Assembly: GCA_005798285.1 (NCBI GenBank)
Contig: SYKE01000199.1
Coordinates: 1 to 54,465, forward strand
DNA: 54,465 nucleotides
Direction: 5' to 3'
Source: Actinomycetota bacterium
Lineage (GTDB): Bacteria; Armatimonadota; SYMT01
Under the pieces are notes generated by a model. The model was given only the letters and a program-made list of their open reading frames with translations, was not told the origin of the DNA and ran no database searches. Shown in pieces: positions 1,878-43,070 of this stretch; within the stretch, counting starts at the first letter, position 1; every line of letters begins with the position of its first letter. The position numbers and the translations under genes are program-made.

Positions 1878-4202
1878 ATGCGTGGAAGCCTGATCCTGGG
1901 CCTGGCCGGCGCCTTGTTGGCGACCGCCGGCGTGGCGGCCCCGGTGCAGCGCGCCAAATCGGCGGCGGCCAGGCCGGCGGCAAAAGCAGCGGCCGTTACC
2001 GGATGGTTGAGTTGGCGAGGGCCCGACCAGACCGGCGTCTCCCACGAGACCGGACTGGTGGATACCTGGAAGCTCGGCGGAGCGAATGATCTCTGGAGTT
2101 ACAAGCTGGCCAGTGGGGGGACCCCTGTGCTCGCGAACGGGAAACTGTTCGTGCTGGGCTACGAAGGCGAGGGACCGAACCTGCAGGAAGTCTTCGTCTG
2201 CCTGGATGCGAATACCGGCAAGAAGCTCTGGGAGCGCCGCTACAACGACTACCTCAGCGACGTCGTTTACGATCGCTACGCCATTGGTTACCCCGCCGTC
2301 GATCCGGCCACCGGCAACGTCATCGTACTCACCGCCGCCGGCTACTTCTCCTGCTACACCCCCGCCGGGAAGCTCCTCTGGGAACATCCCATGATGGAAG
2401 AGTTCGGGAAGCTGACGTTCCCGAATGGTCGCACCGGGGGCCCGATCGTAGACGGAAATCTGGTGATTGTCCGCGGCATCACGTCCAACTGGGGAGGTGA
2501 GGGGCCGGCATCCGATCGCTTCTACGCCTTCGACACCGCCAGCGGCAAGCTCGTCTGGTCGTCCACTCCGGGCGGCCCTCCCAAGGACAACTCCTTCGCA
2601 AGACCGTTTCTCGGATGGCGCAATGGCAAGCGCGTCTTTTACACCGGCACCGGCGATGGCCAGGTGTCGTGCGTGAATGCCCGCACCGGAGAGCCGATCT
2701 TCCGGTTCCCGCTCTCCGCGGGCGGCATCAACTCCTCCGTGGTGCTCTACAAGAACCTCGCCATCGCCATCCACAACGACGAGAACCTGGATACCTCGGA
2801 AATCGGCCGAATGGTTGCGGTGAAGGTGGACACGGAGCCCAAGGCGCCGGTCGCCGGAGTTCCCGGCGCGCCGGAGATGCCCGCCACGGCGGAAGCCTGG
2901 CGCAACGAGCTGGGCACTGTCTCGAGTTCGCCGCTCCTCGTGGGCAACCGCATCTATCAGGCGAGCCACACCGGACAGCTCTGCTGCGTCGATGCGGACA
3001 CCGGAAAAATCCTCTGGCGCCACAAGCTGGCTCCGGATCAGCTCCATGCCTCGCCGCTCTACGCCGACGGCAAGATCTACATCCCGATGCAGAACGGCCT
3101 GTTCTACATTCTCAAGCCGGGCGAGACCGACTGCAAGGAACTGTGCAAGGTTCAACTTGCGGGCCGTTGTCTCGGACAGCCCATCGTGTGGGGCGGCAAG
3201 TTCTATGTCACCTCCACCGAGCGGATTTACTGCTTTGGCAACAAGGCGGGCGGCAAGCCGGCCGTCTGGCCGAAGGAGCCTGCTATGAAGCCGGGCGAAC
3301 CGGTGGCGCTCCAGATCGTCCCCGCCGAGGTGCTGCTTCGACCGGGTTCGAAGGCCACCTTCGAGATCCGTGGGATCGACGCCAACGGCCTGGTGACCGG
3401 CACCTATCCCGCCAATCAGGCGGCGTGGGCGAAGTACATCCCGCCGACCGCCCGGGTTCGCGCGGAGATGAGCGGATCGTTCAACGCGGCGGGTGAACTC
3501 GTCGCCGATGCGGCAATCAAGCCGTCGGCCGGCGCCTTCCAGGCCACCATCGGCAACTTGAAAGGCACCATCCGGGGCCGCGTGCTCCCCGATCTTCCCT
3601 TCAAAGAAGATTTCGAGGGCTACAACATCTCGGAAACACACGCCACCGAAGCCGATACCAAATTCGCCTACCCACCGCTGCCCTGGATCGGCGCCCGCTT
3701 CAAGTTTGAAGTTCGCGAGCACCAGGGGACCAAGGTTCTGGCGAAGACCCTCGACAACATCTTCTTCCAGCGAGCCACGGTGTTCTTCGGTCGACCGGAA
3801 AGCTCCAACTACACCGTCGAAGCCGATGTGATGTCCGACGGGAACCGCCGCACCATGTCTACGGTCGGACTCATCAATCAGCGCTACCTGATTTCGATGG
3901 TCGGCAACGCCCAGACGCTTCAGGTGACGTCGAACGAAGAACGGATCAAGGAAGGCGTGCCGTTCAAGTGGGAAACGAAGACCTGGTACCGGCTGAAGAC
4001 TCGCGTGGACGTTGCTGCAGACGGCTCCGGTGTGGTGCGGGCCAAGGCGTGGAAGCGTGGCGAGCCTGAACCCGCCGCGTGGAATCTGGAAGTCAAACAC
4101 CGCCAGGCCCACACGATGGGGTCCCCCGGCTTGTTCGGCTTCTCGCCGCAGAGCCTCTTCCGCGTGTATGTCGACAATCTGGCGGTGACGCCGAACTCCT
4201 GA
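1878..4202 (+). CDS. Exported PQQ-like beta-propeller protein with an Ig-like module and a C-terminal lectin/DUF1080-like module
   Basis: ATG at 1878 is preceded by AAGGA (1865-1869). Signal peptide MRGSLILGLAGALLATAGVAA. WLSWRGPDQTGVSHETG plus propeller blades (FVCLDANTGKKLW, VSCVNARTGEPIF, LCCVDADTGKILW). An Ig-like stretch (LQIVPAEVLLRPGSKATFEIRGIDANG) follows, then a C-terminal beta-sandwich-like tail ending FRVYVDNLAVTPN. Confidence 0.8.
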   Translation: MRGSLILGLAGALLATAGVAAPVQRAKSAAARPAAKAAAVTGWLSWRGPDQTGVSHETGLVDTWKLGGANDLWSYKLASGGTPVLANGKLFVLGYEGEGPNLQEVFVCLDANTGKKLWERRYNDYLSDVVYDRYAIGYPAVDPATGNVIVLTAAGYFSCYTPAGKLLWEHPMMEEFGKLTFPNGRTGGPIVDGNLVIVRGITSNWGGEGPASDRFYAFDTASGKLVWSSTPGGPPKDNSFARPFLGWRNGKRVFYTGTGDGQVSCVNARTGEPIFRFPLSAGGINSSVVLYKNLAIAIHNDENLDTSEIGRMVAVKVDTEPKAPVAGVPGAPEMPATAEAWRNELGTVSSSPLLVGNRIYQASHTGQLCCVDADTGKILWRHKLAPDQLHASPLYADGKIYIPMQNGLFYILKPGETDCKELCKVQLAGRCLGQPIVWGGKFYVTSTERIYCFGNKAGGKPAVWPKEPAMKPGEPVALQIVPAEVLLRPGSKATFEIRGIDANGLVTGTYPANQAAWAKYIPPTARVRAEMSGSFNAAGELVADAAIKPSAGAFQATIGNLKGTIRGRVLPDLPFKEDFEGYNISETHATEADTKFAYPPLPWIGARFKFEVREHQGTKVLAKTLDNIFFQRATVFFGRPESSNYTVEADVMSDGNRRTMSTVGLINQRYLISMVGNAQTLQVTSNEERIKEGVPFKWETKTWYRLKTRVDVAADGSGVVRAKAWKRGEPEPAAWNLEVKHRQAHTMGSPGLFGFSPQSLFRVYVDNLAVTPNS

Positions 4203-39472: not shown

Positions 39473-40561
39473 TCAGGGCTTCCACCGAGTCGAGGCGATG
39501 TACCGGTCGCTCTCAGGAGAGTCGTTGAAGTAGTAGACTGCCACGAGCGTGCCGTCCGGTAGGAGCGTGGTGCGTGGATAGCCTAGGTCGTGGCAACCGC
39601 CGTCGGTGCGAAGCAGCACCTCGTCGCTCCAGGTTTCCCCGGAGTCGGAGCTCAAGCGGGCGCGGATCCCGAAGGGCGCGTCGCGATAGCCGTAGATGAG
39701 ACAGAGCCGATCGTCCGGCAGCCGGGTGAGGGTGGCGGGATTGCCGCCGAATCCGGTGCTCGGCGCAGGTCGCCCCACGAGCGACCATGACAGGCCGTCG
39801 TCGGAGCTCCGATACAGATCGAGCCAGCAGCCATCGTTGATGTCCGGCCCGCGCCGCCGGCATCTCAGCGTCGAGAGGAGGTCGCCGTTGGGAAGCCGGA
39901 GCGATGCCGGCATAATGGTGTAGCCTTCGGGCTCGGGGCCGATCCACGAACGGAATTGAAAACTTCGGCCGCCGTCTTCGGTCCGCGCACAGAACACGCG
40001 TCCCTCACGCCCGTCGGATTTCGCGGCGGTGAGGAATACAGTCAACTGATGAGGGCCATCTACAATGCCGTCGGTTCGGCCCGCGATTCCGGGGAGACCC
40101 AGATCGCCGAGGGCGAACGGACCGCTCCAGGTTCGACACCGATCGAGGGACGTGTAAAACCAGGAGATCGCTCCGGCTGCGAGACCGGTCCGGCCGACCA
40201 TCCACACGAGCTCGGGCGCTGTGAAGTCGATGGGGTCGGGGCTGGGAAGGATCCGTTCTCCGGCATCCAGGAACGAGGAGATCTTGAGTTCCGGCTCCAC
40301 ATGCTCGTCCGCCGAGAGGCCGCGACCACCCGGGGTGGCGCAGCGGCAGGGCTCTGAGGTCCAGGTTCTGCCTCCGTCCAGGCTGCGCGCCTGCACGGCG
40401 GTGAACGGACGGGTCCGGTCGCGGGTGTGAAACCCGCCGCCCGGATGGTGGCTGCCGACAGTGAAAGCGGCGACGATTTCCTCGCCCCAGGACCAGATGC
40501 CGTAGTTGGCGGGCCAACCGGCATAGCGTCCCGGCTCTCGATACACAACTGTGTGCTGCAT
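39473..40561 (-). CDS. BNR-repeat (sialidase/exo-alpha-sialidase-like) beta-propeller protein with no evident signal peptide
   Basis: ATG at 40561 gives MQHTVVYREPGRYAGWPANYG. Four Asp-box (SxDxGxTW-like) motifs are present: SLDGGRTW, TEDGGRSF, SSDDGLSW and SSDSGETW. Confidence 0.75.
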   Translation of the reverse strand: MQHTVVYREPGRYAGWPANYGIWSWGEEIVAAFTVGSHHPGGGFHTRDRTRPFTAVQARSLDGGRTWTSEPCRCATPGGRGLSADEHVEPELKISSFLDAGERILPSPDPIDFTAPELVWMVGRTGLAAGAISWFYTSLDRCRTWSGPFALGDLGLPGIAGRTDGIVDGPHQLTVFLTAAKSDGREGRVFCARTEDGGRSFQFRSWIGPEPEGYTIMPASLRLPNGDLLSTLRCRRRGPDINDGCWLDLYRSSDDGLSWSLVGRPAPSTGFGGNPATLTRLPDDRLCLIYGYRDAPFGIRARLSSDSGETWSDEVLLRTDGGCHDLGYPRTTLLPDGTLVAVYYFNDSPESDRYIASTRWKP

Positions 40562-40698
40562 GAAGTCTCGTTCAAACCAGCCCGCCCGGATGGTGCCGGG
40601 GCTTGCGTGAAAGCGCACTCTCGGAGTGTGCAACGCATCACTCCGGGAGTGCCGGCTCAGTCGCCATACTCTGTGTGGGCAGCGGTTTCCATCTGCCT

Positions 40699-40737
40699 TC
40701 CCGGGATGGTTGCGGAGGATCATCCCGGGATTTTTTT
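40699..40737 (+). terminator. Hairpin + T7 (module 1 of a tandem pair)
   Basis: tcccggga (40699-40706) pairs with tcccggga (40723-40730). The loop is tggttgcggaggatca. The hairpin is followed by ttttttt (40731-40737). Confidence 0.6.
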
Positions 40738-40901
40738 GTTTCCGGCGACGTCGAAGGCTGAAGCCCACCGACGCTCGACCACCTGGCTGAACGCTATTTT
40801 TGTTGAGATCGCGGCGCACCCCGGAAGGTGTGGTCTTTTTCATAAAGAACCGTCGCCGCGACGCCATTCTTTATACCAGGCAGCGGGGCGACCTTCTGCC
40901 T

Positions 40902-40941
40902 CCCCGGGGTGGTTGCGGAGGACTGCCCCGGGGCTTTTTTT
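40902..40941 (+). terminator. Hairpin + T7 (module 2 of a tandem pair)
   Basis: ccccgggg (40902-40909) pairs with ccccgggg (40926-40933). The loop is tggttgcggaggactg. The hairpin is followed by c then ttttttt (40935-40941). Confidence 0.6.
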
Positions 40942-41057
40942 GTTGTATCCGCAAGGCGGCTCCAGGCGGGAGTCCAACAGCTTGGACCGCTGCGGCTCCA
41001 TTGGGGGTAGGGATTGCGGTCGCCGTGGGAGTAACTCTTTGGCGAGGTAATCCGGCA

Positions 41058-43070
41058 ATGACACCAGCAGAGCGCTATTCCCAGTGGTTGAACGACACCG
41101 CCCGCGGCCTGAGGGCGGCCGACCCGTCGCCGGGGAGCGCTGCGGAGACCCGGGAGCGTACCGCTCGCATTCGGGCTCGAATGCGGGCATCCGCAGGGGA
41201 TTGGCCGGAATCCCCCGCGCCGCTTCAGCCCGAGATGCACGGAGAGCTGAAGCGGGATGGCTATCGAGTCGAGCTGATCACCTTCCAGACGCGACCGGGC
41301 TGCCACGCGACTGCGTCGGTCTACGTGCCGGATCCCTTGCCGGCGAAGTGCCCGGCGGTTCTCTGCGTTCATGGTCACTGGGCAGGGGCCCGGCGCGATC
41401 CCGTCGTGCAGTCCCGGTGCATCGGCCTGGCGAAGCTCGGATTTGTGGCGCTGACTCTCGACGCGTGGGGCGCCGGGGAGCGAGGCACCCTCATCGGGAC
41501 CAACGAATACCACGGCGGTCTGCTGGGCGCTTCGCTCTGGCCGGTCGGCACGCCGCTCTATGGGATGCAGCTCTACGACAACATTCGAGCGCTGGATTAT
41601 CTCCAGAGCCGCCCCGAAGTGCTTCCCGATCGGATTGGATGCACCGGGGCCAGCGGTGGGGGCAACCAGACCACCCAGCTTTCGGCGTTCGACGATCGGA
41701 TTCAGTGCGCCGTCCCGGTCTGCAGCGTCGGCACCTTTGCCAGCTATCTGACCGCCGCCTGCTGCGTGGACGAGATGCTGCTCGACGCGCTCTCCTTTGC
41801 CGAAGAGGGCGATCTCCTCGGTCTGGTGGCGCCCCGAGCACTCATGGTGATCACCGCCACGCGCGACAGCTTCCATTTCGGTCCCATCGCTTCGGCGGAG
41901 GCGGTCGAGCGGGCAAAGGGATACTTCGAGGCGCATGGGGTGGGCGACCGCGTGCGGCACACGCTCTTCGAATCGGGCCACGACTACAGCCGCCCCATGC
42001 GGGAGGCGATGTACGGCTGGATGGCCCGCTGGCTCAAGGGGCAAGGCGACGGCTCTCCCATCCCGGAACCGACGATTCAAACCGAAGATCCGGAACTGCT
42101 TCGCTGTTTTCCGAAACCGTTTCGACCCGGCCGGGTGATGACCACGGTGGAGTGGGTTCGGCAGCGGGCGGAGGAACTGACGGCCACGGAGCGGGCGCCC
42201 ACGGATGCTGGAGAGTGGGCGACGGAGCGTCGTCGGCGAGTGGAAATCCTGAAGAGTATTCTCCACCTTCCAAACTCCGGCGCTGCCCGGCACACCGCGC
42301 CTCCGGCCGGCGCCGGCGCCGGCCGCTCCACGGCGGAGCTGGAGGTGGAACCGGGCGTCTCGCTTCCCATTCACCTTGAACGCCCCGCAGAGCCACGGGG
42401 TGGAGCGGCGCTGCTGCTGCACCCGCTCGGCGGCGCTGCGGCGCTCGACACCCCTCTGGCACGGGGCCTCGTCGCCGAAGGGATCACGGTCATGGCGCCC
42501 GATCTTCGGGGCTGCGGAAGCATGGTGCTGAAGGCGCAGGGACTCGGCGCCCAGATCCCCGATCACAACCTCTGCGAGTGGTCGTTCTGGATCGCGCGGC
42601 CCCTCTTCGGACAATGGGTTCACGACATTCGGCAGGTCGCCGCAGCCGCGCGAAAACTCGGGTCACCCTCGGATCGCGTGGCTCTCATCGGCTGGAAGGA
42701 AGCCGGGCTGACCACACTCGCCGCAGCCGCGCTCGACTCCTCGGTGCGGGGAGTCGCCGCCCTGGAGGCGCCCGCGACCTTCACCCAGAGCGGGGTTCCC
42801 CACAACGTGCGGATGGTGGCCTTTCAGCCCCATCTGCTGAAGGTAGGTGACGTGCCGATGCTGGCGGCGCTGGCGGCTCCACGTCCCGTGCTGATCGGCG
42901 ACCCCATCCAACTGGATGGCTCCCCCGTCGCCGAGGCCGGACTCCCACGGCTGGCGAAGCTGCCGCTCGCCGTCTACCGCGTCGCGGGAGCCGGAGATGC
43001 CTTCACGCTGAACCGGGGCGAAAGTCCGTCCGCGCAGGCCGTTCGAATCCGGGACTGGCTGCTGGACTAG
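41058..43070 (+). CDS. Alpha/beta-hydrolase-fold protein (acetyl-xylan-esterase / dienelactone-hydrolase-like), 670 aa
   Basis: ATG at 41058. VYVPDPLPAKCPAVLCVHGHW..., nucleophile elbow IGCTGASGGGNQT and later FESGHDYS (candidate His). A C-terminal second lobe is also hydrolase-like (LLLHPLGGAAAL...). Confidence 0.7.
   Translation: MTPAERYSQWLNDTARGLRAADPSPGSAAETRERTARIRARMRASAGDWPESPAPLQPEMHGELKRDGYRVELITFQTRPGCHATASVYVPDPLPAKCPAVLCVHGHWAGARRDPVVQSRCIGLAKLGFVALTLDAWGAGERGTLIGTNEYHGGLLGASLWPVGTPLYGMQLYDNIRALDYLQSRPEVLPDRIGCTGASGGGNQTTQLSAFDDRIQCAVPVCSVGTFASYLTAACCVDEMLLDALSFAEEGDLLGLVAPRALMVITATRDSFHFGPIASAEAVERAKGYFEAHGVGDRVRHTLFESGHDYSRPMREAMYGWMARWLKGQGDGSPIPEPTIQTEDPELLRCFPKPFRPGRVMTTVEWVRQRAEELTATERAPTDAGEWATERRRRVEILKSILHLPNSGAARHTAPPAGAGAGRSTAELEVEPGVSLPIHLERPAEPRGGAALLLHPLGGAAALDTPLARGLVAEGITVMAPDLRGCGSMVLKAQGLGAQIPDHNLCEWSFWIARPLFGQWVHDIRQVAAAARKLGSPSDRVALIGWKEAGLTTLAAAALDSSVRGVAALEAPATFTQSGVPHNVRMVAFQPHLLKVGDVPMLAALAAPRPVLIGDPIQLDGSPVAEAGLPRLAKLPLAVYRVAGAGDAFTLNRGESPSAQAVRIRDWLLD

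Follow-up and report, generated by a model that had tools for sequence, protein, structure and literature searches.

A tandem pair of family-restricted, covarying terminator modules as probable sibling small RNA genes in an uncultured bacterial lineage

The intergenic region at positions 40562-41057 of the window (the whole 54,465-nt stretch of DNA that was analysed) probably contains a tandem pair of sibling genes that encode a small, lineage-specific non-coding RNA. This RNA would be transcribed from the plus strand, act in trans, probably in association with Hfq, and use an invariant loop as its functional contact. The 496-nt gap separates a BNR gene from a divergently oriented esterase gene and holds two modules of about 62 nt, which form a repeat, fold into the same structure, covary with their homologues, are conserved at low copy number within one bacterial family and are independent of their neighbouring genes. 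The reading as a small RNA gene follows from this combination, in which a low-copy, mobile and independently conserved unit has such a shape.

Results

Two terminator modules in one intergenic gap

The window corresponds to contig C170 of a MAG with a completeness of 69%, and the closest clusters in a protein atlas point to Planctomycetota as the probable phylum. A repeat finder returned a 49-nt direct repeat within the gap (40689-40737 vs 40892-40940) with 82% identity and a spacing of 203 nt, and the 5.04-Mb assembly contains the 13-mer TGGTTGCGGAGGA at just two places, both inside this gap (40707-40719 and 40910-40922). The initial annotation, made from the letters of the sequence, had described a module repeated twice at this spacing with seven T at the end of each copy, and both descriptions hold. 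Over the core the two copies are 76% identical, with pairing kept at every stem difference, and both were called as terminator-like with 13 pairs each (40699-40730 and 40902-40933). Coordinates of all features are collected in Table 1.

Table 1. Features of the intergenic region and its surroundings in the window, and gene order around the module in related genomes (RNA, module; arrowheads, gene direction)
Feature	Position	Strand	Description
BNR/sialidase-like gene	39473..40561	-	Divergent upstream neighbour; Pfam BNR_2; context only
Possible 5' part of copy 1	40612..40676	+	Putative limits; 18-bp hairpin 40615-40652, then a ~25-nt unpaired linker with CAUACUCU
Module copy 1	40677-40737	+	Small hairpin, terminator hairpin, T7
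Copy 1 small hairpin	40677..40698	+	GGGCAG..CUGCCU, just 5' of the terminator; minimum-free-energy fold
Copy 1 terminator hairpin	40699..40730	+	13 bp, hexaloop GCGGAG at 40712-40717; fold; stem covaries over 7 homologues
Copy 1 T7 tail	40731..40737	+	Tail of intrinsic terminator; T-run listing, terminator call
Possible 5' part of copy 2	40806..40877	+	Putative limits; branched fold, then linker CGCCAUUCUUUAUACCA
Module copy 2	40878-40941	+	Small hairpin, terminator hairpin, T7
Copy 2 small hairpin	40878..40901	+	AGGCAG..CUGCCU; fold, family alignment
Copy 2 terminator hairpin	40902..40933	+	13 bp, hexaloop GCGGAG at 40915-40920; terminator call, fold, family alignment
Copy 2 T7 tail	40935..40941	+	T-run listing, terminator call
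AXE1/Abhydrolase_7-type esterase gene	41058..43070	+	Co-directional downstream neighbour; Pfam, protein atlas; context only
Locus in G001			mnmG> RNA> <PHP
Locus in G002			epsH (exosortase)> RNA> <recQ
Locus in G003			NUDIX> RNA>
Locus in G004			<pentapeptide RNA> <PHP
Locus in G005			<nusG RNA> <Big_2

Sites of this kind are rare in a genome of 64.5% G+C, where runs of at least seven T or A number only 59 and terminator-like sites followed by T6 or more only 71 genome-wide, so that two T7 terminator sites lying 203 nt apart are far from a chance occurrence. Among the few canonical terminators of this genome is one near position 3904 on the minus strand of another contig (C227), where a strong terminator with a CCCCGG stem and T7 lies behind a tRNA 3' end (GGTTCAAGTCC..).

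Comparison of the two stems confirmed the compensatory changes that had been proposed for the pairs T40699:A40730 (C40902:G40933 in the second copy) and A40706:T40723 (G40909:C40926). These two had been taken as the full set of differences, but five pairs differ in total, the remaining three being one-sided changes that leave the bases paired by way of wobble (U-A to U-G, G-C to G-U and G-U to G-C; 40707-40709/40720-40722 vs 40910-40912/40923-40925). Similarly, the 13 nucleotides assigned to the loop are indeed identical between the copies, but the minimum-free-energy fold pairs most of them and leaves the hexaloop GCGGAG as the actual loop.

Two long open reading frames run across the gap. 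The frame of the BNR gene stays open up to 40867 (39473-40867, minus strand), 102 codons past the ATG at 40561, and a plus-strand frame at 40427-41050 also crosses it. As homologues of the BNR protein measure 356-366 aa, the ATG at 40561 is assigned as its start, and these homologue lengths, together with the junk-like appearance of the translations through the gap, argue that the long frames crossing it are not coding. For annotators, this means that the gap is not empty, and that the plus-strand frame and the BNR extension to 40867 are spurious and should not be entered as genes. The BNR protein itself has homologues of about 60% identity that their sources label as Chloroflexota, Poribacteria and Latescibacteria, a patchy spread across phyla that suggests horizontal transfer of the gene, and another homologue (P0003) is 97% identical.

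Conservation of structure and loop

About 62 nt make up the conserved core, in which a short hairpin comes first and is followed by one U (or C), a 13-bp terminator hairpin with the GCGGAG loop, and a U tail. In a model-fitted alignment of seven copies from six related genomes, the 18 pairs of the two helices are paired in 93.5% of cells, and 8 of the 18 change on both sides, including two of the five pairs of helix 1, the small hairpin. Of 500 shuffled controls, 0-1 attained values as high as those of the real alignment, and when the pairing partners were slid by 1-3 columns, pairing fell to 40-54%. With seven related sequences, an alignment fitted to the model and modest statistics, we regard the covariation as supportive rather than conclusive.

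Identity between members over the core is 57-76%, while the base of the terminator stem (CCCGG/CCGGG) and CGGAGG at the loop are invariant. Six copies have GCGGAG as their hexaloop and one has UCGGAG; together with its closing G the loop presents a Shine-Dalgarno-like GGAGG. As the structure contains many G-U pairs and ends in a T tail, the plus strand is the one expected to be transcribed. The U tail is T7 in both window copies and in G002 and T8 in G001, and is shorter or interrupted in G005 (T5), G003 (T5CT4) and G004 (T3CT4).

Distribution of the module

In order to find homologues, a covariance model (R1) was first built from five sequences. In G001-G005, which belong to the same GTDB family as the source genome, this model detected a single module per genome, at E values of 1e-5 to 1e-15. 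The search of own and related genomes with a model derived from the copies, which had been suggested in the initial annotation, thus placed the module in five of the six other family genomes, each representing another genus and each with a single copy. The source genome yielded the two window copies at E ~1e-19 and no other convincing match; model matches at contigs C32 and C195 of the same genome, and at contig C97 of G007, were rejected because they lack the loop and correspond to generic terminators or to coding DNA. After rebuilding (model R2), the seven members scored 62-77 bits.

Searches outside the family were conducted at several scales. R2 found no member in the sister family, in a class that comprises only 8 genomes in the collection, and a covariance-model search of a sample of 150 phylum genomes gave nothing convincing in the 144 that lie outside the family. 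A looser sequence pattern of the core, applied to 401 phylum genomes, recovered the source genome and the same share of its family (five of six), with one stemless chance match among the 394 others, and the reversed pattern matched none of these genomes. When public genome contigs were scanned with the pattern, chance matches in GC-rich Actinomycetota filled the listing and none of the matches listed passed the model, and the sole match in a metagenome scan was the contig from which G002 itself derives. Across these searches the module was found only in one rare, uncultured GTDB family. It was not found in the remaining family genome, G006, whose mnmG contig ends about 115 nt past the stop codon and whose PHP locus is rearranged. 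The module of the congeneric G001 sits just beyond the point where this G006 contig ends, and the absence is most likely an assembly gap.

These data bear on whether the pair could be a dispersed repeat of the REP or MITE kind, or a recent neutral duplication. Two copies do lie next to each other and have a palindromic stem core (CCCGGG), but the source genome holds only these two copies and each relative one, the copies have diverged to 76% identity over the core with pairing kept at every stem difference, and the element is conserved across genera with covariation. We find this reading barely credible. The initial annotation had named a recent local duplication with random differences among the outcomes that would together speak against a functional RNA, and neither the copy number nor the covariation across genera fits it.

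Gene neighbourhoods

The order of genes in the window is <BNR RNA> RNA> esterase>, with the esterase gene starting 116 nt past the second T run. The next gene is convergent with the module in four of the five relatives (G001, G002, G004 and G005). Upstream, the window, G004 and G005 have a divergent gene next to the module, which would therefore need its own promoter; G001, G002 and G003 have a co-directional gene 50-170 nt upstream, and their copies could accordingly come from a 3' UTR.

The initial annotation had offered tandem attenuators of the downstream hydrolase as one function, and both window modules do stand upstream of the esterase gene in the same direction and at short distance from it. 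A conserved leader or attenuator role is ruled out by the convergent orientation of the next gene in most relatives, and no relative has an esterase at this place. No alternative antiterminator pairing is evident in the sequence, where the terminator fold dominates, and tandem attenuation of the esterase gene in particular appears very improbable.

A second possibility is that the module is a conserved terminator or 3'-UTR element, that is, an efficient intrinsic terminator of upstream transcripts that happens to have been duplicated in the window. The co-directional upstream genes of three relatives would suit such a role, and in a genome where intrinsic terminators are rare a good one might be kept. 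However, each genome has a different gene upstream, divergent from the module in three cases, there are only one or two copies per genome, and an invariant loop with an additional conserved hairpin, retained across genera between unalignable flanks, is left unexplained. On this balance a terminator element is quite unlikely. The pair of small RNAs that the initial annotation had offered as one option fits the evidence: covarying stems, a near-invariant loop, occurrence in five other genera at one copy per genome, and unrelated gene neighbourhoods.

The sole conserved neighbour found is the PHP-domain gene that lies tail-to-tail with the module in G001 and G004, where the two genes are orthologous and 72% identical (L019 661-1476 and L021 545-1456). 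A further observation concerns G005, where a ~125-nt inverted repeat with G-rich and (CCCCT)n-rich arms forms a long hairpin directly upstream of the module (contig C2, ~17.75-17.88 kb; L017 1635-1760); a search of this inverted repeat against Rfam gave only chance miRNA-type matches.

Sequences upstream of the core

No significant alignment was obtained between any two members over the 200 nt upstream of the core. Strong hairpins are nevertheless placed 25-30 nt upstream of it in most members, with a layout of hairpin and then linker that looks similar by eye. The 127-nt stretch of copy 1 folds at z = -5.8, and copy 2, taken with its candidate 5' part, at z = -3.1. The two copies also share GCGCAC..CGGA..GUGUG in a co-linear 17/20 match at offset 201, which may hint that a whole gene of ~200 nt was duplicated, although at z = 0.1 vs shuffles the match is not significant.

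Several elements of this region are recorded as separate observations. The hairpin at 40615-40652 is nearly perfect over its 18 bp and is not followed by a T run. It could form a 5' domain of the RNA or, on the other strand, be part of the promoter or 5' UTR of the BNR gene. Inside the candidate 5' part of copy 2 is a further terminator-like hairpin (40815-40832, T5 to 40840), which is weaker and has a GGAA loop. Just ahead of that part, at 40793-40805, a third tail-like motif, GCTATTTTTGTTG, resembles both terminator tails and might be what is left of another, decayed copy.

A terminator and promoter scan of the window found no sigma-70-like promoter, and ahead of copy 1 the sigma-54-like sequence TGG..TTGC was discarded because its spacing is off by one. 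In five or six members the small hairpin is preceded, at a distance of 2-8 nt, by the motif (C/G)AYACU. This motif could be a -10 box, which would give an RNA of ~60 nt, or an unpaired seed within an RNA of ~110-130 nt. The full RNAs would then measure from ~60 to ~130 nt, with a part 5' of the core that varies between genera.

A possible mode of action

We propose that both sibling genes are closed by Rho-independent terminators of their own and that the RNA would act in trans. Its double hairpin and long U tail may constitute an Hfq-binding 3' module, and the invariant G-rich loop (GGAG) may make a specific contact with a partner, most likely by loop-mediated pairing with an RNA that contains CCUCC(GC), or alternatively through recognition by a protein. 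Searches for the corresponding protein genes found hfq (PF17209) above the cut-off in six of seven family genomes, including the source genome, where the gene lies on contig C127. By contrast, csrA (PF02599) was found in none of the seven, five of which are at least 90% complete, with E. coli, B. subtilis and T. maritima positive as controls, and proQ was likewise found in none of the seven.

An Hfq-associated, trans-acting RNA is favoured because a hairpin followed by a GC-rich terminator and seven or more U matches the Hfq-binding 3' module. PMC5558911 describes the terminators of genes for Hfq-binding sRNAs as having at least seven T, and such a T7-or-longer rule appears both there and in PMC4509938. 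Both window copies, G001 and G002 reach this number, while G003, G004 and G005 fall short of it. A further point counts against the Hfq-type reading, namely that an invariant terminator loop is unusual for Hfq-type sRNAs; in the enterobacterial examples SgrS and RyhB the sequence of the terminator loop is not known to be a conserved functional element. As for the partner, CCTCCGC, the complement of the loop, is not enriched in the genome relative to a reversed control, and we found no CU-rich, terminator-capped RNA with CCUCCGC in the source assembly.

The loop also allows for a mimic or sponge, in line with the protein- or ribosome-binding decoy offered in the initial annotation, in which GGAGG in the terminator loop would titrate CU-rich anti-Shine-Dalgarno small RNAs, the 3' end of 16S rRNA or a loop-binding protein. 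Conservation is highest in the loop, with varying surroundings, and both copies gave weak, sub-threshold matches to the sponge RNA RsmW. These matches, at 21 and 19 bits, stand against a gathering score of 52, however; each RNA exposes a single GGA/GGAGG site where sponges usually carry many; the genome offers no CU-rich, terminator-capped CCUCCGC partner; and the search for csrA, negative in all seven genomes with positive controls, disfavours the CsrA/Rsm form. We consider a mimic or sponge unlikely as a whole. Its more specific version, a Shine-Dalgarno-mimic decoy that soaks up CU-rich anti-Shine-Dalgarno regulatory RNAs or a novel loop-reading protein, in a lineage without CsrA and ProQ, is decidedly unlikely, and if true it would amount to a new kind of sponge circuit.

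Discussion

Taken as a trans-acting, probably Hfq-associated small RNA, the element would represent a new family-restricted small RNA gene family outside Rfam, present here as a sibling pair. It would add a covariation-supported RNA gene family from an uncultured lineage whose RNA regulators are almost unstudied. The sharply defined, invariant GCGGAG terminator loop and the natural sibling pair provide handles for tests of Hfq binding and for capture of the partner.

Searches of the window and of the relatives' loci against Rfam gave no match at the gathering score, in agreement with the initial annotation, which had recognised no known Rfam family. With the threshold relaxed to E values up to 10, only chance-level matches to RsmW, NsiR1, Spot 42 and others appeared. 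The best of them for both copies was RsmW (RF02809, clan CL00106), at a sub-threshold 21.1 and 19.0 bits vs 52. The likeness lies in a GGA-containing loop on a terminator hairpin. Sponges of the Rsm/Csr type differ in that here the core exposes GGA at the terminator loop only, the other GGA motifs of copy 1 being held in stems, and on score, on csrA (0/7) and on the number of GGA sites the module does not belong among them. NsiR1 of heterocystous cyanobacteria (RF02399), which also matched both copies weakly, resembles the module as a two-hairpin RNA of ~60 nt that occurs in tandem repeats. It belongs to an unrelated phylum, however, and at 16 bits (E ~2.5), where Rfam sets the gathering score at 39, the match is at chance level.

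Other classes were considered on their defining features. An attenuator or 5' leader does not agree with the convergent downstream gene of G001, G002, G004 and G005, and REP or MITE elements, which have many dispersed copies, do not agree with two copies here and one in each relative. Compensatory change across homologues, the mark of a structured RNA, is present at 8 of 18 pairs, as counted over seven sequences in a model-fitted alignment.

The 3' end of the module, a putative Hfq-binding site, is comparable to the Hfq-binding 3' module of SgrS and RyhB as it is described in PMC5558911 and PMC4509938, where a hairpin is followed by a GC-rich terminator and seven or more U, and hfq is present in this lineage as well. 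It differs in that three of the homologues have shorter or interrupted U tails.

The arrangement of the two genes has its closest counterparts in another lineage. Tandem sibling sRNAs are found in the Proteobacteria, namely OmrA/OmrB in E. coli, AbcR1/AbcR2 in Rhizobiales and PrrF1/PrrF2 in Pseudomonas. Like the two copies in the window, these are adjacent, co-oriented paralogues with their own Rho-independent terminators, in which one part is shared and the rest has diverged, although no sequence or Rfam relationship connects them with the modules reported here. The conserved part also differs: in the OmrA/B, AbcR1/2 and PrrF1/2 pairs it is a 5' seed, whereas in the present family it is the 3' double hairpin with its invariant terminator loop.
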